Positions 8,003 through 64,000 of a stretch of 64,000 bases of DNA are shown here, one piece after another. The stretch is taken from NCBI RefSeq assembly GCF_963921235.1, contig NC_086097.1, positions 53,508,001 to 53,572,000 on the forward strand, read 5' to 3'. The stretch's first letter is position 1; each line of letters starts with the position of its first letter. The stretch comes from Mobula hypostoma (taxonomy: Eukaryota). The position numbers were made by a program, and so were the translations under genes. The notes beneath the pieces were generated by a model. That model was not told where the DNA came from and did not search any database. It worked only from the letters and a program-made list of their open reading frames with translations.

Positions 8003-8198
8003 GACATACGAGAAGAATTAGGCCAATTGGCCCATCGAGTCTGTTCTGTCATTCCACCATGACTGTTTGTTATCCTTCTCAACCCCATTCTCCTTCCTTC
8101 TTCCCATAACCTTTGACATATTTACTAATCAAGAACCTATCAACCTCCACTTTAAATATATCCAGTGACTTGGCTTCCACAGCCATCTGTGACAATGT
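8003..8198 (-). mobile_element. CR1 3' fragment
   Basis: Reverse complement of the CR1 3' end (gaattaggcc...aagaacctatcaacctcc). Confidence 0.75.
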
Positions 8199-9138
8199 AG
8201 AATTGAACTGAATTGACTTTATTACTTACATCCTTCATATAAATGAGTAAAAATCTTTACGTTACGTCTCCATCTAAATGTTCAATGTGTAATTTATAAT
8301 AAATGGTATGTACAACAGGACAGTCAATATGACATAGAAATACAATTGTATCAGCATGAATTAATCAATCCGATGGCCTGGTGGAAGAAGCTGTCCCAGA
8401 GCCTGTTGGTCCTGGCTTTTATGCTGCAGTACCGTTTCCCGGATGGTAGCAGCTGGAATAGACTGTGGTTGAAGTGACTTAGGTCCCCAATGATCCTTCA
8501 GGCCTTTTTTACACACCTGTCTTTGTAAATGTCCTGAATAGTGGGAGGTTCACATCTACAGATGTGCTGGGCTGTCCGCACCACTCTCTGCAGAGTCCTG
8601 CGATTGAGGGAAGTACAGGTCCCCATACCAGGCAGTGATGCAGCCAGTCAGGATGCTCTCAGTTATGCCCATGTAGAAAGCTCTTAGGATTTGGGGGACT
8701 ATACCATTCTTCTTAAACCATCTGAGCTGAAAGATGCACCGATGTGCCTTTTTTACCACGCAGCCAGTATGTACAGACCACGTGAGATGCCGAGGAACTC
8801 AAAGCTGTTCGCTCTCTCAACTCCAGATCCATTGATATCAATAGGGGTTATCCCGTCTCCATTCCTCCTGTAGTCCACAACCGGCTCCTTTGTTTTTGCA
8901 ACATTGAGGGAGAGGTTGTTTTCTTGACACCACTGTGTCAGGGTGATGACTTCTCTGTAGGCTGCCTCATTATTATTTGAGATTAGGCTAATCAGTGTAA
9001 TGTCATCAGCAAATTTAATTGGCAGATTGGAGCTGAGGGTGGCAACACAGCCAAGGGTATACAGAGAGTAAAGGAGGGGGCTTAGTACATTGCCCTGAGG
9101 GGCACCTGTGTTGAGGGTCAGAGGGGCAGAGGTGAGGG
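8199..9138 (-). mobile_element. Rex1/Babar LINE, 5'-truncated
   Basis: LTLNTGAPQG.VLSPLLYSLYT, KFADD, ESILTGCITAWYG; AATAAA and (tcaat)-type tandem tail at 8199-8222. Confidence 0.85.
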
Positions 9139-9915
9139 AATTGATTTGCAGAAAAAGGCTCACTTAAATTAATTTTTCAATTACAATGATATTTACTAAA
9201 TATTGTCCCAGAACCTATTGAATAGTTGACAGGTCTATGATAGTCCTAAATTTACTCCCTCTCTCTAGACCATGATTTAGACATTTTACCCTCTCCCATT
9301 AGAATGAATATTTTTAGGAAGCACATTGTTGAAAATGAGAGCTGGGAAGGACACCAGGGTAATAAAGCATTGTGTCTCTCCTTGGTTCAATGAGATTTAA
9401 TGATAGAGAAAATCATCAGAAGATAAAATAATGACTGGAGTCAAATAATAAACTGGAAGATAGAAATAAGTTAAACAATGATTTGGACAGTAAGACGGAA
9501 ACAAGAAGCAGAAAGGAAAAGTAAAAAAAATGCAGCCATTACATTCCAAATCTTCCAGAGGCACAAATAGTTTGCTTTCAGGTTGGGGTGTTTGTTTGCA
9601 ATCACTAGTATGTTCTTAAAGGGTATCTTCTACTGTTAAATACCAGTTTTGACTTTCCAAGGTGAGTTAATTGGCAAATAACATGCAAATACAACATTTT
9701 ATTGGAACTCAGTGGAAAGTTAAGGTTAATGATAGAGTGCTTAAATCATTCAGCAACTTGTAACAATTTAGAACTCAATGGGCATTTCCTCCATGTCACA
9801 AATTTCTGGACAATTTTCACATTAATATTTATGAAATTTAATATAATGTAGTAAATTGCTATTTTTATTATCAGTAAATATGAACCCAATATAATAACTT
9901 CCCACTTGATATAAT

Positions 9916-12610: not shown

Positions 12611-15077
12611 TATTGGACAAACCTTTCTGTCAAGCCATTTGTAGCTGGGTGGTACGATGCAAATGTAATACGTCTCATTGCATTCATTTTCAGCAATGAC
12701 AAACTACTTTGCAACAAACTGTAGTCCATTATCATTGACTAAGTGTTCTGGAACACTGGCCCTTGAGAAGAGTATGTGAGGCTGTAGTGGAGGCTATTAG
12801 TAACACTTCTGGCCACTTTGTAGCTGCATCCTGAACTATCCTTTACTACCAAGAAATTTGTGCCCATGAACAGTCTGGCAAAATGCACACAAATCCTCTG
12901 CCAGGGCAATGAAGGCTATTCCCAGGGATAGAGAGGTGTTGCTCTTGGCATTTGCTGTACATGCTGGCATCCCGCACAGTGCATGGCATCTGACTGATCT
13001 GCTGATCTATCCTAGGCTACAAGACAGAGATTCGAGCCAGTGTTTTCATTTTGCCCATGACCAGTATGCAGCTCCTCCAACACTTCCATTCTCAGTTTAG
13101 ATGGTACAACAACTCTCAATCCCCACATAAGACAACCTCCGTCAAGGGCAAGATCATCCCAGTACTGGTAAAAATGGGGGAACTTGAATTTCTGCTGCAC
13201 ATTTCCAGTCACTTGGGTATTCAATGTAGACCTGAGAGGGTGTGGGGTCTTTTATGGATTTCCTTTGGATCACCTCTGACATAACAGAGAGACTTTTGTT
13301 TTGCATTAGGGAGAATACATCAAGAGGAAGTGTCCTTTTTGTAAATTTTTCCAGTTTTTCCTTTTCCAAGGGTAAATGGGACAATCCCTCACCATTTCCA
13401 TGATTAGTCATCCTCTTGAATTTGATCTTGCAATTGCGCCCCTCCAAGAAAAAGAGACCATCTCTGCATTTGTGCTGCTACTGTTAAAGGAACACCCTTC
13501 TGTGGACTGAAAAGGGACACCATTGGGACATCAGTAATGAGGGTAGACTCTCTCTCATATAGGGACTGGTTGAAAAGCTTTACATTCCAAACCATACTCA
13601 AGGCCTCCATTAATTTGTGCGTAATTTTTCCCTGCAGTGGGAAGGTAATGTGATTCAAAGTCTATGGAGCATTCACTTTCACCACATGGAAGCTTGACTA
13701 AATGTTGTGGATCATAATGTGTGAGTACAGTGTCTGATGTTACCATTTCCTTTGCCTTTTGGAAAGCCACTACACAAGATTTTGTCCATTGCCATTTCTT
13801 CCTGATCTGTAGTAATGAGTTCTAGGAATGGAACACAGTAATCAGATTTAGCAGGAACCTGTTATAGTAGTTGACAAATCCTAAAAAGGACCACAACTGT
13901 GACCACAATAAGTGATGCTTGGTTTAAATAATTCACCTTTTCACGTTGTGCTCTGAGCCTATAATCTTCTACTCTTTTTAACATTGTTTTGAGTTTTTGG
14001 AGATGTTCCTTGTCATCCTCACCAGTAACAATGAGGTCATCCGGGTAACACTGAGTGCCCAGGCAGCCTTGCAAATCCTGGTCCATAGCTTTCTGTGAGA
14101 GTGCAGGTGAAGATGCTACTCCAAAAATAAGCCTAATACAGTGCTAAAACTCTTTGTGACTGTTCATGGTGAGAAACACTCAACACTTCTTCCATCTCCA
14201 GCTGCAAGTAGGCCTCAGCCAAGTCCACTTTGCTGAAGTTTTTGCTCCAGAATTCTTTGCAGGGGTTATTGATCTACTTTCAGTACTGGGTAGATAGTGA
14301 CCTTAAAATCACCACAGCTCCTGACAGGCCCATCTTTCTTGTCTACTGGCACCACAGGCATTGCCCATGGGCTCCACTCACCCTTGGAAAGAATTTCTTC
14401 AGCCTCCATGTAATCTAGTTCATTGGCTACTTTATCACAGATGCTACAAGGAATTGAATGGGCTTTGCAAAACTTTGGTGTGACATTTTCATTTAATACT
14501 ATTTTGCTCATGATACATTTGATTTTGATTATAGCATCATCCACCATCCTTTCTTAATATGCTTTCAGTTGACTTTCTTGCAGGGAATGTAGGATGCAAA
14601 TTGTGGATGGATCTCCAAACAAGTTGCAGTTGTCTCAGACAGTCACAGTCCCACAATGCTGGCCCTCCTGTATTTACCACATACAAGCCCAGTGTGGCTT
14701 GTTGGTTGATGCATTTCACTGTTACAAATGTCATTCCCACAAGAGTTATCTTTTCTCCAGGATAAGTTCTTAGTGGACATCTGCAGTTCATTATCTTTGA
14801 AATTCCATTCAAACTCATTTTGTGGCATGGCTGAAACAATCGAGCCAGTGTCCGATGCCATTTTAATTAATTGCTGCTCCCTTTTGGTGTAAGCCATATT
14901 GCTTGATGTTACATTGTAAATCTTCAGACTAATCAGTCCTATGTCATTCTCATCATTATCAGATTTATCATTATCAGATTTTTCATTAACACCATGCAGA
15001 TTCAGGCTCTTTTCCAAACTGCAATTTGACTTTTTAATCATTTTCTCTGCCCTGTGCAGTCCATTTATTTTTGTCTG

Positions 15078-54374: not shown

Positions 54375-55203
54375 GAGAATTAATGATTTGGATGATAATG
54401 TGGTAAACTGCATCAGCTATTTTGATTTTGGCATCAAGACTGGGGGTGTAATGGACAGTGAGAAAGACTATCATCATCTCATTGCTATTGAATGCTGTGT
54501 TTCTGTCAGCTTTGCAATACAACATGCATTTCATTGTGCCAACCCATCAGCTATTTTCAATAGCCTGTTCACATCCAAGACCATTATAGCAAGGATGTGA
54601 TGCTGAGGCTTTATAAGGCTCTGGTGAGGCCTCACTTTGAGTATTGTGAACAGTTTTGGGCTCCTCATCTTAGAAAAGATGTGCTGGCATTGGAAAGGGT
54701 CCAGAGGCAGTTCACAAGGATGATTACAGGAATGAAAGGGTTATTATATAAGGAATGTTTGATGGCTCTGGGTCTTAGAAGGACTGAATTTAGAAGGATG
54801 AGAGGGGATTTCATTGAAACCTTTCGAATGTTGAAAGGCCTAGACAGAGTAGATGTGGAAAGAATGTTTCCCATGGTGGGGGAATTTAGGGCAAGAGGGC
54901 ACAACCTCTGGATAGGGGAACGTCCATCGAAAACAGAGATGTGGAGAAGTTTCTTTAGCCAGAGGGTGGTGAATTTGTGGAATTTGTTACCACAGGCAGT
55001 TGTGGAGGTCAGGTCATTGAATGTATTTAAGGCAGAGATTGATAGGTTCTTGATTGGACATGGCATCAAAGGTTACGGGGAGAAGGCTGGGAACTGGGTT
55101 TGAGGAAGAGAAGAAAAAAAGGATCAGCCTTGACTGAACGGCAGAGCAGACTTGATGGGCCAAATTGCCTAATTCTGCTCCTAGGCCTTTTCGTCTTATG
55201 GAC
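54375..55203 (+). mobile_element. CR1 3' fragment
   Basis: ORF 54597-55103 LYKALVRPHFEYC.QFWAP...FFSQRVVNLWN. Confidence 0.9.
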
Positions 55204-57637: not shown

Positions 57638-57774
57638 CCAGTTTTGAAGAAGAGTCTCGACCCAAAACCTTGACTGTTTACTCTTTTCCATAGATGCTGC
57701 CTGACCTGCTGAGTTCCTCCAGCATTTTGTATGTGTTCCTTTGGATTTCCAACATCTGCAGACTTTCTCCTGCT
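57638..57774 (+). mobile_element. Penelope terminal fragment with degenerate hammerhead
   Basis: cagtt-ttgaaga-agagtctcgaccc-aaaa-cctt-gactg...gatgctgcctgacctgctgagttcctccagc. Confidence 0.8.
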
Positions 57775-59601
57775 TGAAAGATAGATGGTTTTAAAAATAA
57801 AAGGTGTAAACCATGATGGTATAATACCATCACTGGTAATGAACAACGCATTTACAAAAGTACATTATATAAAATCTTTAAAGCAGTACATATAAGGAGT
57901 TACCCATATTAGAAAGTAAGTGTGTAACATCCAAATAGGTAATCGAAAAATCACATTTGATGACTCATCTTTCTGTTGGATTGTTAGCAAACCAATTATT
58001 TGTGACAGATACATCCCACCCTCCCTCAAGATGAAACGAGAAACCTGCATACCAATATGCAATGTTAGTGATCAGGACCAGGAAAAGCAGAAGGACAAGA
58101 ATAAAATTATCAGGGCAGTCCCTGCTCTTCACTCTTTCAGGGTTAGGGACAAACCAGAAGAATAGGCAAAAAGGTGAGTATGAGGCAAGTGATAGCATGA
58201 GAGACAGCCCACAGAAGTGCAGGTTTAGTATGGGAGTTAACCAAGTCTTAGGAGTGAAGCCTTTGTACAAAGAACAGAAGTCACCAAACTTCCATCTTCG
58301 CAGGCTTCAACACCTCAACAAGTACAGTAAGGGATTGCCCATTGGAAAACTGCAAAAAAAAAATTCAACCCAATTTAAAGCGGTGCTAATCCACCTGGAA
58401 ACTGTATTGGTTGCTATGGAAGCTAAATGTGTAACAGCTGGAAATATCTTTGTTATAGCTTCAGCTAGAATATGAAGTCAATCAGAGGTTTGATTATGAG
58501 TTGGCAAAGGAATCTTGTAAAAGGAGGTACCTCACTCATCTGATTATGTCAGTTCAATTACTCTCATAATACTGTATATAGAGAAATATTCTTTTAATTT
58601 GACTGAGTTCCTTCTAGCAATTGCTGACAAATATCTAGAGCACTCTTAGTTGCATGTAGCACAAATTGCTCCTTAAAATTAGACTTGCATTTCTGTCTAG
58701 AGATACACAACATAGGTTAAATCATCAAATTACTCTGAGTCATTTCCTTTATTAACCCTAAATAGCGAGTGATCCTTGAGAGCAATATTTCTGAACAACT
58801 TTTGTCGTCAGAAATTTCTACCTTCCAAGTGAACTGAAGGATCCCATCCGCGCGTTATGACAGTGGCACTGTCAAGGCATGGCTGCACAGAAAGTTTTAC
58901 TCCCAACATTTTTATTAAAGCATGAAAAGCCAAATTGTTTTTTCCTCTCTCTTCCTGTTTATGATAACATCATGTGATTGAATACACAGCAATAATTGAA
59001 GGCTTATCTGTGTATATAATATCATCTATTTGGGAAGCAATGTTATTGGTGTAACCCCAAAATTTGTCACTGACAATAAAATTTGTCATAGAATTGTTTT
59101 CCTGTTTAGTCAAAGTCTATCTGAAATATAAGTGAATTTGTGAGGATACTAATAAGTCTGAACTAATTTTCATGGTAAGGTATTATTCACACCACAGCAT
59201 GAACTATTCATGACTGCTTGATTAAAGGCAAATAGGAAATCTGGATAGATACTGTATAATAGTCTATGAGACTAAAATCTCTAAAAAGCTTCTTGGACTT
59301 TTCAGTTTCAGTTGACCAGGAAGGAAACATTTCTGTTATACCTCACATTCTGCTTCAGTGCATCTTTCCAAATTATATTCCCATGCAACAGCCTGGGTCT
59401 AGGGCTTTGCTGGACCATTCAGAAATGCAGAAAATTGTCATGTTACCTTGACATTTAATAATGGAGTGGAATAATGACCATAATGGAAGAAGGGAAACAT
59501 GTAAAACTTTTGTAGTAAATATGCTCATTTACTTGTTGACCGTAAGGGGAAAGTGCGATAAAATATCTGTCCACTGAATAAGTTCTTCATTAAAAAAATT
59601 C

Positions 59602-60195
59602 TCAGAATCAGAATCAGGTTAAATATCATCAGCATATGTTGTGAAATTTGTTGTCTTTGTGGCAGCAGTACATTGCAATGCATGATAATAGAGAAAAAAC
59701 TGTGAATTACAGTAAGTGTATATGTATATTAATAGTTAAATTATATAAGTAATGCAAAAAGAATAAACAAGTAGTGAGGTAGTGTTCATGGGTTCAATGT
59801 CCATTCAGAAACAATATGGCAGAGGGGAAGAAGCTGTTCCTGAATTGTTGAGTGTGTGCCCTCAGGCCCCTGTACCTCCTCCCTGATGGTAGCAGTGAAA
59901 AGAGGACATGTCCTCGATGACTGAGGTTGGGGGGGGGCGTCCCTAATGATGGATGCCACCTTTCTGAGGCATCATTCCTTGAAGATGTCCTGGGTACTAC
60001 AGAAGTTAGTGCCCGTGATGGATCAGACGGAGTTTACAAGTCTCTGCAGCTTATTTTGATCCTGTGTAATAGCACCCCCCACCACTCCTCATACCAGATG
60101 GTGATGAAGCCAGTTAGAATGCTCACCATGGTACATCTATAGAAACCTGCGAGTGTCTTTGGTGACATACCAAATCTCCTCAAATTCCTAATGAA
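59602..60195 (-). mobile_element. Rex1 3' fragment inserted in ERV env
   Basis: (gattct)n tail; RRFGMSPKTL..FYRCT..S.LTG.IT.WY. Confidence 0.85.
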
Positions 60196-60310
60196 AAAAA
60201 AAATATATCATATGTTTTACAATGCTCTAGTCTAACAACTTCAATGTCATGTTCCCATGTGTGGGATAATTCAATGACACAACAGTGGCTATACTTTTCT
60301 TCAAGTGTAG

Positions 60311-61830
60311 AGGGATTCTGTACTCCCTCTTCTGTACTCCCTTTTCACCTATGACTGCTTTCCTGTACATTAAATTAGATTAGATTAGATTATGAGGACA
60401 TGCAGTCCTCTTTTATTGTCATTTAATAATGCATGCATTAAGAAATGATACAATGTTTCTCCAGAATAATATCACAGAAACACATGACAAACCGACTGAA
60501 AAACTGACAAAAACCACATAATTATAACATATAGTTACAACAGTGCAAAGCAATACTGTAATTTGATAAAGAACAGACCATGGGCACGGTAAAAAGTCTC
60601 ATAAAAGTCTCTCGAACGTCCCATCATCTCACGTATACGGTGAACCTCCAGCGCCGCAAACTTGCCGATGCAGCATCCTGGAAGCATCTGACCACAGTCC
60701 GACTCCGAATCCGTCCGAAAACTCCGAGCCTCCGACCAGCTCTCCGACACTGAGCACCCAGCACCATCTCTGCCGAGCGCTTCGACCCCGGCCCCAGCAA
60801 CAGGCAAAGCCGAGGATTTGGGGCCTTCCCCTCCGGAGATTCTCGATCGCACAGTAGCAGCGGCAGTGAAGTGGGCATTTCAGAAGTTTCTCCAGGTGCT
60901 CCTCCATGCTTCTCACGGCTGTCTCCATCAAATCAGGGTTGTGTACGGCAACCTAGTTAACACATACGATATCATTCAGTACGGCTGCGCGCGCTGCGTT
61001 GTGCCGCCATCTTCTCCTCCCTCCTCCTACATGGTTCTAACTCCATAATCAAGTTAGCAGGTGACACCACGGTGGTTGGCCTGATCAGAGGGGATGACGA
61101 GACGGTCTACAGGGACAAGATTCAGCACCTGGCTGTGTGGTGTGCCGACAACAATCTGGCCCTTAACACCCAGAAGACCAAGGAGATCATTGTGGACTTC
61201 AGGCATGCTAGGAGCCACACTCACGTCCCCATCTACATCAACGGAGCTGTAGTGGAGCATGTATCAAGCTTCAAATTCCTTGGTGTCCACATTTCCGACG
61301 AACTCACCTGGTCCCTGAACTCCTCCATCCTGATTATAAAAGCGCAACAGCACCTTTATTTCCTGCGGAGCATCAAGAAAACTCACCTCTGTCCCAGGAT
61401 ACTGACGGACTTTTACCGCTGTACCACTGAGAGCATACTCACCAACTGCATCTACCATAAACGCTGCCTGGGCAGGGCAAAAAGCATTATCAGGGAGGCA
61501 TCTCACCCTAACCATGGACTTTTTACTCTCCTCCCATCCGTTAGGTGCTACAGGAGCCTCTGCTCCCACACCAGCAGGCACAGGAAGAGCTTCTTCCCTG
61601 AGGCTGTGACCCTGCTGAACCTCACATCACAGCGCTAAGCAGTATTGCACCCATATTGTACTGTCTCAGTACTTTTATATTTGTGTGCTGTAGCACTTGC
61701 TTTTTATTTGCAGTTATTTTGTAAATAACACTATTCTTTGCATTTCTGGTTAGATACTAACTGCATTTCATTGGCTTTGTATCTGTACTCGGCACAATGA
61801 CAATAAAGTTGAATCTAATCTAATCTAATC
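60311..61830 (+). mobile_element. Rex1/Babar LINE, 5'-truncated, inserted in ERV env; itself interrupted at 60371-61027
   Basis: QG..YS.LLYSLFTYDC | SNSIIK.AGDTTVVGLI, WCADNNLALNTQKTKE; AATAAA and (aatct)n tail. Confidence 0.9.
60371..61027 (-). mobile_element. Non-autonomous non-coding retroelement with CpG-rich 5' part and (TCTAA)n tail
   Basis: TSD tacat (60366-60370, 61028-61032); begins ggaggagggaggagAAGATGGCGGC; tail matches the host Rex1 tail. Confidence 0.8.
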
Positions 61831-62289
61831 CATGTCAAGGGATGTCTCTATTCGTTTACCTTCAAAATCTGAGCTGGAATCTCAGTTTTGTTGGGGTGTT
61901 ATTAATCATTTCTGCAAGTGATTCTTTGCCCTCCTGCATACCTGTGTTCATTTCATCTGCATTGCCATCGACTTTGTTTGCAACAAAACAAATTGTAAGA
62001 AAGGCAGCACTGAACAATATTATTATAAGCACAAAATTAAAAGTAAAATTTCTTACTCTGAAAACAACAACGCATTTTGGATGTATTATCCCTGGACCAT
62101 GCATCTATGAGATCAAGTAAACAGGAATTTATACATTTATTTTTAGATGTAAACCAGTGTTTTATCTTTTGAGTACATCTCATCCCCCCTGCCGACTGGG
62201 GTGTAGGGATTCCATGGTGGACCCACGTACTGGTCTAATATAAAAGTTCCATTCATTCTGGGGGAAATAAATCCTGCTGGGGCAGGTCT

Positions 62290-64000
62290 GATGCTGAGGT
62301 CTTATTTCTCCTCCTGGTCACGATTACCACAGTCCTATTGTTAATGACCTGGGCAATGAGACTAGACATTTCCATCTACCATGGAAACTAGGGTCAGAAT
62401 TATTTTTCTGGAATTTCCTTTCTTGGATCCAGTCTCCTTTTTGAGGTTTCCAAGTTGTCTTGTCAGATCCTTTTGCTTTTTCTTGAATTCCCATAAATTC
62501 TCTCAATTTTTGAGGAGAGTTGTATCAGGTGTAGGTGATGGTTGGCCTGAGTTTGTGATCAGGGTGTATTTAGGTGGACATTTTACATTAAGCAATAAGG
62601 TACAACATTCTTGTATGCTCCTATTTTTGCAATGGGCTCTTTTGATTACAGACAGTTGAACTTTAGGGACAAGTGTTGCCTACTTTGCCTCCAGAGTAGA
62701 GCAGTTTTGCCAGGCCTCCTGACTCTCTCAATTCCTTCACTGCGTTATGCCACTCGATTGCGGCTGGAATGGAGTGCTGTACTTGAGTTGCATTCCTGTT
62801 TGTTCACACATGGCTTCGAAGCTCTTAACCCTGAAGGAAGTCTCTTGGTCTACATGTATGCAGGTGGGGTTGCCAGCACATGGGAGTACGTAGTTATGGA
62901 GTGCTGTCTCTCTACAAGAAGCCGTGGAGACTAATCAAGTATATCTTTTGCAAAGACCAGTTATCACAAGAAATATACTATTAGGTTTTCGATAAGGTGG
63001 GTTGTCTTTGGCTGACAGAAATAGGCCTATATAATTAACTTCCACACCCGCGTTGGTGCAGTTGGCTTTGTTTGTCCTATAGGAGGTGGTCTTGTGACTG
63101 CTCCTTTACGATAGACCAGACATTCTTTACCATTTGCAAGAAATCGCTTACATAGTCATACTTTATTGATCCCAGGGGAAACTGGTTTTTGTTACAGTTG
63201 CACCATAGATCCTCAGCACATAAAGCCACCAATATAACATGGCTAATTCTACATGAATGTTGAGTCTAATGCCATGACTGTGTACAAATCCTTGGTGGCT
63301 TTCTCAAATCAGTGCTTCCCACTTGTGGGCATGAGGTACTTGCCTCTTATTTCTTTTAGGGCAGCAAACCCAAACATTATCTTCACCATCAGCTTCATGC
63401 TTGTACTGTGTTGGAAATCCTTTGAGATGGGTTTAATAACATCTAGGAGAATGCTTAAACATCATCGTGATTACTCTTTATTTGTTACTTAGTTACAACC
63501 AAAACCCTGGCCTCCTTTAGCGTAGTAAGGTCCATCTGGCAGCTTGTTTTGCTTCTTTATTACCATAGCTGTGTAAGAGGCTTGCAGTTTGTCCCAGGAT
63601 GTATATCACTTGTACTAATGGTCTAACCAAAATACAAACTGTAAATTCATAAATTTTCTTCCATGTGGACAAATGAAGACGGAGTTTACTACTGTGTGTC
63701 CTCCAACCAGTAGCTGACTGGATGAGAAGATCTCTTTCTACCACGTTCCTGACATAATTAAAAGTAGGACTGGTTCTGTTGCGTTCACTTGTTTTGGACA
63801 TAACTCTAGGCATTGGAACCTGATTTTGAACGACTTGAGTTGCAAGTGCATCTTTTTCTAAAACTCTTGCAACTCATGTGGTTCAGAATCCGTTTCCATT
63901 AAAAAAAAAATCCTTTTATAATCAGGAACAGGGATTATGATTGAGTGAATCCTTATTTCTGGATTTTCATTGCTGGTCCATCACAATACCATATTTGGGA
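62290..64000 (-). pseudogene. pol: pol (RNase H and integrase) of foamy-like endogenous retrovirus; continues beyond the window
   Basis: IWYCDGPAMK; NYVRNVVERDL..SATGW..HLSTWKKI; H SYGNKEA; IN NED LKGFPTQY (63426); H..H..LYWW; NYIG (63036); IHVDQETSF (62859); STPFQPQSSG (62778); LVPKVQL; WKPQKGDWIQER (62452); VINNRTVVIV (62342). Confidence 0.92.
63151..63208 (-). mobile_element. 58-bp LINE 3' tail inserted in the integrase zinc finger
   Basis: Near-identical to 50881-50937; catag at both junctions. Confidence 0.85.

Follow-up and report, generated by a model that had tools for sequence, protein, structure and literature searches.

What is the stretch of DNA, free of long open reading frames (ORFs), that fills the upper end of the 64,000-nucleotide window analysed here (the window being the whole stretch, 1 to 64000)? 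A preliminary description had proposed a foamy-virus-like endogenous retrovirus (ERV) on the minus strand, comprising RNase H, integrase and env. Our analysis leads us to a closely related answer: the region is very probably a decayed, 3′-truncated provirus that belongs to an old, high-copy family of foamy-like (Spumaretrovirinae-related) ERVs. A 5′ long terminal repeat (LTR), a primer-binding site (PBS), a trace of gag, the second half of reverse transcriptase (RT), RNase H, integrase and an env-like region are collinear on the minus strand; they are accompanied by many in-frame stops and frame changes, a nested insertion of long interspersed nuclear element (LINE) sequence in env, and loss of sequence beyond 57778. 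The window copy has no present coding function: it is a viral fossil, not a working gene.

The extent of the element emerged from comparison with 30 kb of sequence past the window end and with five sister copies (among them c18, c36, c55 and c58). Homology to the sisters runs in a single orientation from 68887 down to 57778 (positions above 64000 are window-equivalent), and the bounds first proposed, 57965 to 64000, therefore fall short on both sides. For annotation this means that the element accounts for some 11 kb of otherwise ORF-less sequence, and for several hundred similar loci in the assembly.

The argument begins with Pol. A hidden Markov model (HMM) of 12 foamy-type Pol proteins was set against stop-to-stop fragments from window-equivalent 65100-62200 (E<=1). 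Ten of the 62 forward fragments match, in strictly collinear order (profile 359 to 1118) and with a summed score of ~105 bits; none of the 69 reverse-frame fragments from the same interval does so, which indicates that the pattern of motifs exceeds chance. A gamma/epsilon-type Pol profile matches five fragments of this region (~40 bits summed) and a Gypsy profile four (~33 bits). The eight peptide strings from which the foamy reading was originally built are all present, on the minus strand and at the places given for them:

~63966-63995, minus strand: IWYCDGPAMK, at the window edge
within 63304-63432, minus strand: KGFPTQY
within 63163-63303, minus strand: LYWW
within 62935-63105, minus strand: NYIG
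within 62737-62934, minus strand: IHVDQETSF and STPFQPQSSG
within 62324-62524, minus strand: WKPQKGDWIQER
within 62253-62375, minus strand: VINNRTVVIV

From 63873 to 62737 the motifs share a single frame, interrupted by stop codons alone; the frame shifts before 63873 and twice more in the C-terminal part of the integrase. Along its length Pol of the window copy changes frame at least six times, and its matched pieces carry 14 in-frame stops in 517 codons. The fragments that bear LYWW and NYIG have no score of their own with the foamy Pol profile: these two of the eight motif-bearing fragments draw all of their support from the homologous ORF of a sister copy. The coding remnants are arranged as follows (NED, NTD and CTD are the integrase N-terminal extension, zinc-binding N-terminal and C-terminal domains; PFV is prototype foamy virus):

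64396-64004 (window-equivalent), minus strand: RT thumb and connection
63956..64000, minus strand: end of the RT connection and start of RNase H (...YCDG...), a fragment that extends past the window end
63756-62647, minus strand: RNase H and integrase, followed by the CTD at 62524-62256
63520..63873, minus strand: C-terminal part of RNase H (foamy Pol profile 675-747, 8.9 bits, E 0.0027)
63307..63432, minus strand: NED, with KGFPTQY (foamy Pol profile 776-812, 6.0 bits, E 0.021)
63163..63303, minus strand: remnant of the NTD, with LYWW (by homology to the L008 ORF, whose alignment to PFV runs through ...LYWWP...)
62647..63105, minus strand: integrase catalytic core (Pfam rve, E 4.7e-4; foamy profile 928-974, 28.5 bits)
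62256..62524, minus strand: SH3-like CTD, in two frames (foamy profile 1052-1093, 6.6 bits, and 1097-1118, 4.2 bits; Pfam MLVIN_C)

RT is recognisable only from about the YVDD region on, and the piece at window-equivalent 64599-64432 shows 43-58% identity to foamy-type Pol across 48-56 residues. The fragment at the window edge (63956..64000) scores just 1.1 bits with the foamy Pol profile; its ...YCDG... peptide survives intact in copy c55 and almost so in c58, and at the equivalent site both c55 and c36 match the RNase H region of bovine foamy virus. The RNase H stretch is further supported by tblastn with two foamy-like database proteins, P0005 (664-1001) and P0001 (1218-1534). The integrase core of the window copy contains in-frame stops and has N at the position of the first catalytic Asp (NYIG), and it retains HVDQ. 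The Pfam matches on the window, rve and MLVIN_C (E=2.8e-3), both lie under their gathering cut-offs.

The RNase H region also holds an 85-nt imperfect palindrome (63814-63898, minus strand) with a folding energy of -34.1 kcal/mol (z -4.7; 0/200 shuffles as stable). We considered and rejected this hairpin as a functional element: the flanks have homologues in other copies, and the long stem is specific to the window copy. No Rfam family reaches its gathering score between 57000 and 64000.

The integrase can be compared with solved structures. The core fragment of the window copy finds PFV integrase as its best match in the PDB (E 6.6e-6), with HIV-1 integrase following from 4.7e-4. The corresponding ORF of a sister copy – 156 aa, uninterrupted – matches PFV integrase alone, in 8/8 of its matches at E<=1. 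The L008 ORF (136 aa), which spans NED and NTD, matches residues 11-93 of PFV integrase (E 2.3e-4) and no other integrase, the PDB matches that follow being unrelated (E>=0.36). Judged from these alignments, the window fragments and the sister ORFs taken together appear to follow the PFV-type integrase plan of NED, zinc-binding domain, core and SH3-like CTD.

When the sister core ORF was searched exhaustively with HMMER against 1.84 billion representatives, four matches resulted. P0001 ranked first (E 3.6e-9, 53 bits, 35% identity); the remainder (E 1e-5 to 4e-4) were of Gypsy type, namely two plant proteins that carry names and a third protein without one. P0001 is a foamy-like polyprotein of 1687 aa, encoded by an uninterrupted ORF on a public assembly contig of 10,956 bases, and comprises a protease, a complete RT, RNase H and integrase. 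Among solved structures it comes closest to foamy PR-RT (E 1e-101) and PFV integrase (E 1e-60), with Ty3, MLV (murine leukaemia virus) and HIV far behind. Ahead of the protease, the frame of P0001 contains about 520 further residues. Since Pol of foamy viruses is expressed apart from Gag, a fused frame of this kind would be unusual, if the N-terminal part of P0001 is indeed Gag.

Phylogenetic analysis of Pol drew on the two foamy-like database proteins, bovine foamy virus Pol, one other retroviral Pol, 21 Gypsy-type proteins (9 used), whole bovine and equine foamy virus genomes, and 35 retroviral pol loci from IMG/VR. Of these loci 23 were used; the 12 that were dropped comprised five near-duplicate foamy loci, six near-duplicate MLV-type loci and one truncated ORF. 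Two outgroup rows were checked, L025 being like MLV and xenotropic MLV-related virus (XMRV), and L055 like human T-cell leukaemia virus (HTLV). Five proviral copies of the family entered the alignments as their tblastn-matched Pol pieces, with X at each stop and between pieces. A quick tree (40 rows, 1134 columns) united the five copies in one clade with a support of 100 in the SH-like approximate likelihood-ratio test (SH-aLRT), and placed that clade, again at 100, within a clade of 11 foamy viruses, P0001 and P0005. A careful tree (28 rows, 1070 columns) recovered both groupings, the five copies on their own and the five copies with seven foamy viruses, P0001 and P0005, each with ultrafast bootstrap (UFBoot) and SH-aLRT supports of 100/100. 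Gypsy rows formed the outgroup as a separate clade (100/100), and branches of 100/100 set both the MLV-type rows and those from 12.7-kb genomes apart from the family. Within the foamy clade the family branches deeply, and its pairing with P0001 is unsupported (51/14). On these alignments the trees rule out a place for the family among Gypsy elements, MLV-type or HTLV-type viruses or the remaining retroviruses sampled, and leave its exact position unfixed. The Pol phylogeny agrees with the earlier preference for a foamy virus over Gypsy.

If the element is a provirus then it should be bounded by the structures that retroviral integration and reverse transcription leave behind. These are present, for the most part in the sisters: paired TG...CA LTRs, PBS and polypurine tract all occur among them, whereas of the two LTRs the window copy has the 5′ one alone. 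The family LTR is ~1.1 kb long, starts TGTGATGG and has TGTGAT...ATCACA ends. It is present twice in c18 and c55 (~15-16 kb apart, insertions included) and in c36 (~11 kb apart), and a polypurine tract stands before the 3′ LTR of c18. In the window copy the 5′ LTR runs from 68887 to about 67800, its start lying ~4.9 kb beyond the window end, with an insertion of ~620 bp near its end. No 3′ LTR of this copy was found across the whole window (1-64000) and the 30 kb beyond, nor in a self-comparison of 55000-72000. Sister copies extend ~1.5-1.9 kb past the point at which the window copy breaks off, reaching the polypurine tract and the 3′ LTR, and the window copy is for this reason regarded as 3′-truncated.

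The PBS starts 2 nt after the LTR. That of c55 agrees with the PBS from the bovine and equine foamy virus genomes at 15/18 bases, the first 11 of them contiguous, and one of its mismatches is a CpG-type change. Degraded versions occur at the same place in c58, c18 and the window copy (window-equivalent 67175-67158, outside the window). We take the bovine and equine foamy virus-type PBS to be a tRNA-Lys1,2 site. Searches with the PBS of nine other tRNAs (18-mers) gave no placed match adjoining the LTR.

Downstream of the integrase, the in-window part of the provirus is laid out thus:

57778..64000, minus strand: the in-window provirus part as a whole (end of RT connection, RNase H, integrase, env-like region), delimited by blastn against the five sisters
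61828..62255, minus strand: start of the env-like region, with a hydrophobic segment (ORF 61865-62104) and then a homologue of Env region A (61846-61965)
59597..61827, no strand assigned: two LINE fragments in opposite orientations that interrupt env, delimited by sister comparison
57968..59596, minus strand: rest of the env-like region, with homologues of Env region B (59211-59342) and region C (58310-58477)
57778..57967, minus strand: last family-homologous stretch before the break, from sister comparison
57645..57777, no strand assigned: unrelated repeat abutting the break (matching c58 8039-8171 and c18 8100-8228 and 8924-9052)

The LINE insertions suspected from the outset are real. ALKBH8_N (6.3e-13) and RVT_1 match 60961-61638 on the plus strand, inverted LINE-tail repeats are present, and the sister copies confine the inserted sequence to 59597-61827: 2.2 kb in the window copy against ~0.1 kb in c18. 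The 3′ ends of one LINE family, with an ORF2 tail that matches ALKBH8_N, occur at 54564-55103 (+), 59786-60207 (-) and 60961-61638 (+), and two of the three are nested head-to-head inside the env-like region. A separate observation concerns 57645-57777, which sits exactly at the provirus break and is a piece of an inverted-repeat element. The arms of this element are ~350 bp long and 99% identical in one copy, with 93-96% identity between loci; it recurs at L012/L003 (c58 8041-9262) and at window-equivalent 81492-83766 in L010, and looks like a young foldback or DNA transposon.

The env-like region is a conserved feature of the family. With a 138-aa env ORF from the region downstream of the integrase, 150 of 370 candidates were scored and 136 matches reached E<=1e-10; in many cases an integrase match in the same orientation lies ~2 kb upstream. 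In the window copy the stretch 57968..59596 shares 70-73% nucleotide identity with five sister copies, and a hydrophobic ORF of 113 aa (57968-58306) lies in frame with the region C homologue. The kind of envelope was assessed with a profile of 27 mammalian foamy Envs, searched unfiltered against 412 forward fragments of six copies. Scores of 5.2-11.9 bits were obtained by six fragments, which fall at three places in the profile: 170-211 (two fragments), 360-396 (three) and 912-949 (one). Among them are region A of c58 (13691-13812; profile 173-211, 11.9 bits) and sister regions B (360-396) and C (912-949); the B and C fragments of the window copy fall at the matching profile positions with -1.1 and -2.0 bits. 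In copies with more than one match the order is collinear, and the first two places are ~210 codons apart compared with 188 in the profile. The 429 reverse-frame fragments all stay at or under 1.3 bits, and the 20,600 shuffles peak at 4.9 bits, short of the 5.2 bits of the weakest match. A further fragment, from c36 at profile 912-948, scores 3.3 bits: above all reverse-frame fragments, below the shuffle maximum. The second place is also found by tblastn with equine (338-391, E 0.009) and bovine (E 0.14) foamy virus Env. Since the copies are related to one another these results amount to three independent weak matches, not six. In the foamy Env layout the surface subunit would contain the first two places, and the third would come shortly ahead of the membrane anchor in the transmembrane subunit.

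Past 64000, where the preliminary description had looked to RT, protease, gag, a PBS and the 5′ LTR, we recovered the second half of RT, a gag trace, a degraded PBS and the 5′ LTR; the protease did not appear. Pfam Gag_FV_central matches the window copy (E 0.014, 15.4 bits) and c55 (E 0.0014, 18.7 bits) against a cut-off of 30 bits, and tblastn with equine foamy virus Gag (295-352) points to the same place with E 0.006. These matches stand at homologous places and are therefore not independent of each other; a foamy-type Gag signal in the family is suggestive only. The start of Pol, where a foamy-type aspartic protease (Pfam PF03539) and the N-terminal half of RT belong, was scanned with Pfam in the window copy and three sisters (57 + 46 + 29 fragments) and with tblastn in five copies. 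RVT_1 rises above its Pfam cut-off in one sister copy, c36. The protease region is deleted, interrupted or over-decayed, and its absence from the original virus does not follow. Two sisters carry Tc1/mariner-type insertions in gag-pol (L020:1909-2406 and L016:3775-4143), with Pfam matches to a Sleeping Beauty HTH (E 1.5e-7) and DDE_3 (E 1.6e-11).

How securely does the foamy assignment stand? The PDB matches (PFV integrase only, for the sister ORFs), the summed profile scores and the trees all favour foamy viruses over Gypsy, gamma, epsilon and delta types. A number of observations weigh against it nonetheless, several of which concern env. Every env fragment of the window copy scores below 0 bits against foamy Env, and for this reason a claim of env made from the window copy alone rests on homology to its sisters. 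The downstream env of the preliminary description thus holds for the family – as a conserved region with weak foamy Env profile matches in sisters – and finds no such match in the window copy itself. The Pfam foamy Env model (PF03408) reaches E 0.21 at best, in one of 46 fragments, and neither env fragments in the PDB nor the 138-aa env ORF in the ESM-Atlas found anything related. The Gag signals lie under the Pfam cut-off and become marginal once corrected for the fragments scanned. Neither protease nor N-terminal RT was found, by Pfam and tblastn, in the window copy and four sisters, with the result that the foamy-specific A9 protease family could not be demonstrated. The integrase C-terminal ORF of copy L003 finds nothing in the PDB, and a word-indexed protein search with the sister core ORF, restricted to longer targets, passed none of 203 candidates. 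Lastly, the read-through rows of the trees were picked with foamy-type queries, which may slightly favour a foamy placement, and the trees contain no rows for ERV-L, snakehead-retrovirus-like elements, lokiretroviruses, alpha-, beta- or lentiviruses, or published fish foamy-like ERVs.

It is this last point that gives room to the most serious competitor: a lineage related to spumaviruses and yet not foamy (class III/ERV-L-, snakehead-retrovirus- or lokiretrovirus-like) that groups with foamy viruses for want of its true relatives. The depth of the family within the clade, the unsupported link to P0001 and the lack of protease and of N-terminal RT, which as a rule are the most telling markers, would all accord with such a lineage. 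We consider it improbable: among solved integrases the extension and core match that of PFV alone, the PBS agrees with that of two foamy virus genomes, and there are the weak foamy-specific signals in Env and Gag. ERV-L elements lack env, carry a dUTPase after integrase and have a tRNA-Leu PBS; the env-like region after integrase, present in the family, together with the foamy kind of PBS, argues against them. A gamma- or epsilon-type ERV is a highly improbable source, even though the C-terminal integrase fragment scores 9.8 bits with the gamma/epsilon-type profile against 6.6 with the foamy one, its Pfam match is to an MLV-type family (P0001, P0005 and the bovine virus carry another), and integrases of these genera also possess an N-terminal extension. 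Over Pol as a whole the balance of summed scores is reversed, the 100/100 branches intervene, and Pfam found no gamma-type transmembrane (TM) or envelope family among the 46 env fragments. The chance of an env-bearing Ty3/Gypsy element is close to negligible. Such an element would account for the three Gypsy-type proteins among the four exhaustive-search matches, and for the 25.4 bits that the integrase core fragment obtains with the Gypsy profile; it is opposed by the mere four fragments that match this profile, by the fully supported outgroup position of the Gypsy rows, and by the RNase H and NED parts, which match foamy Pol only. A decayed foamy-like provirus is the reading that we retain.

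How common is the family, and how old? The 3.48-Gb assembly carries many diverged copies. An integrase search in which 150 of 528 candidates were scored gave 152 matches, almost every one interrupted by stops, which places at least 150 integrase-bearing loci in the family; the loci are all broken. A 1.8-kb DNA probe, with 40 of 1487 candidates scored, matched 76 pieces, with few exceptions at 67-78% identity, and the last 600 bases of the in-window part gave 43 matches (40 scored of 225 candidates). When the genome was searched with the full length of P0005 Pol, elements of other kinds that carry RT dominated the result, which is uninformative for the family.

In three sisters the Kimura two-parameter (K2P) distance between the LTRs is 0.204 (890 sites), 0.244 (607 sites), and 0.279 and 0.168 (237 and 140 sites). 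Translation into time hinges on an assumed neutral rate: at 1e-9 per site per year the copies would be 84-140 million years old; at the mammalian 2.2e-9 quoted in the available text of PMC4422223, 38-63 million years; and at 2.2e-10, the elephant shark assumption in the same text, an implausible 381-634 million years. The old germline infection envisaged at the start fits these distances of 0.17-0.28.

A history consistent with these observations would begin with infection of the germ line by an exogenous foamy-like virus. Reverse transcription would have been primed at a PBS of the kind shared with foamy viruses, and a DNA copy whose LTRs end in TG...CA would have been placed in the genome by the integrase. 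The lineage may then have multiplied to hundreds of loci, whether by reinfection, for which the retention of env in most copies might speak, or by intracellular retrotransposition; all copies would thereafter have decayed neutrally.

Other retroelements of the genome should be kept apart from this family. Two loci (G000:C91:61206839-61209457 and G000:C36:64329144-64332227) match P0005 over most of its length at 28% identity, and may be a second retroviral lineage. Beyond the window, on the plus strand, are two RT/integrase elements (84597-86795 in L010/L011; 72345-73627 in L009) with 21-27% identity to foamy-type Pol, probably Gypsy-type or another ERV lineage.

Among retroviruses the foamy lineage is regarded as the oldest, and as having co-diverged with the vertebrates; for this argument no branch has been sampled less than the cartilaginous fishes. 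With its hundreds of copies, LTRs, foamy-type PBS, and traces of gag and env, the family provides a data point for calibrating the age of the foamy lineage, and bears on the question of whether the foamy-type envelope is ancestral. With the mammalian foamy viruses (prototype/simian, bovine and equine) it has in common a collinear RT, RNase H and integrase with N-terminal extension domain, the same clade in Pol trees, a PBS that in one sister matches the bovine and equine sites at 15/18 bases, and weak similarity in the Gag central domain and, collinearly, at three places in Env. In the sisters one to two kb separate env from the 3′ LTR, where foamy viruses carry accessory genes, a likeness of position alone. 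It differs in being endogenous, dead and multi-copy; Pol identity in the matched pieces is only about 25-50%, Env regions B and C stand ~270 residues closer together than their counterparts in the foamy profile, and the Env frame seems to extend ~170 codons beyond the region that in foamy Env comes ahead of the membrane anchor. The protease of foamy viruses was not found in the five family copies searched. P0001 is the best database match of the family integrase core and falls in the same 100/100 clade; its uninterrupted ORF, with protease and full RT, sets it apart, and a sister relation to the family is unsupported.

The nearest published counterparts come from cartilaginous fishes. Foamy-like ERVs (CmiFLERVs) are described from one chondrichthyan, Callorhinchus milii, with pol as the sole gene detectable according to the available text of PMC5512871; the C. 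milii ERVs in the text at hand of PMC4422223 are snakehead-type and epsilon-type, not foamy. As far as the accessible portion of PMC10699275 goes, 12 chondrichthyans were screened, three batoids (Amblyraja, Leucoraja and Pristis) among them, and elements are listed for the small-spotted catshark only (ERV-Spuma.0-Sca, 293 elements); their consensus comprises LTRs and three ORFs, in which a conserved domain of Gag was not found and one of Env is not listed. A full-text literature search of incomplete coverage returned no report of foamy-like ERVs in rays or skates. Compared by these partial published descriptions, CmiFLERVs and ERV-Spuma.0-Sca resemble our family as basal foamy-like Pol lineages of Chondrichthyes, multi-copy and old; such elements being already published for chimaera and catshark, the family adds to a known kind. 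Foamy-type signals in Env and Gag, though weak, and a PBS of foamy type distinguish our family from the C. milii and catshark elements as there described. Should the host be a ray, this could, we tentatively suggest, be the first foamy-like ERV family from batoids, and the first from a cartilaginous fish in which foamy-type gag, env and PBS are all recognisable. Were that so, the whole foamy genome plan, gp130-type envelope included, would already have existed in viruses of cartilaginous fishes, and would probably be older than the split between cartilaginous and bony vertebrates, not assembled later.

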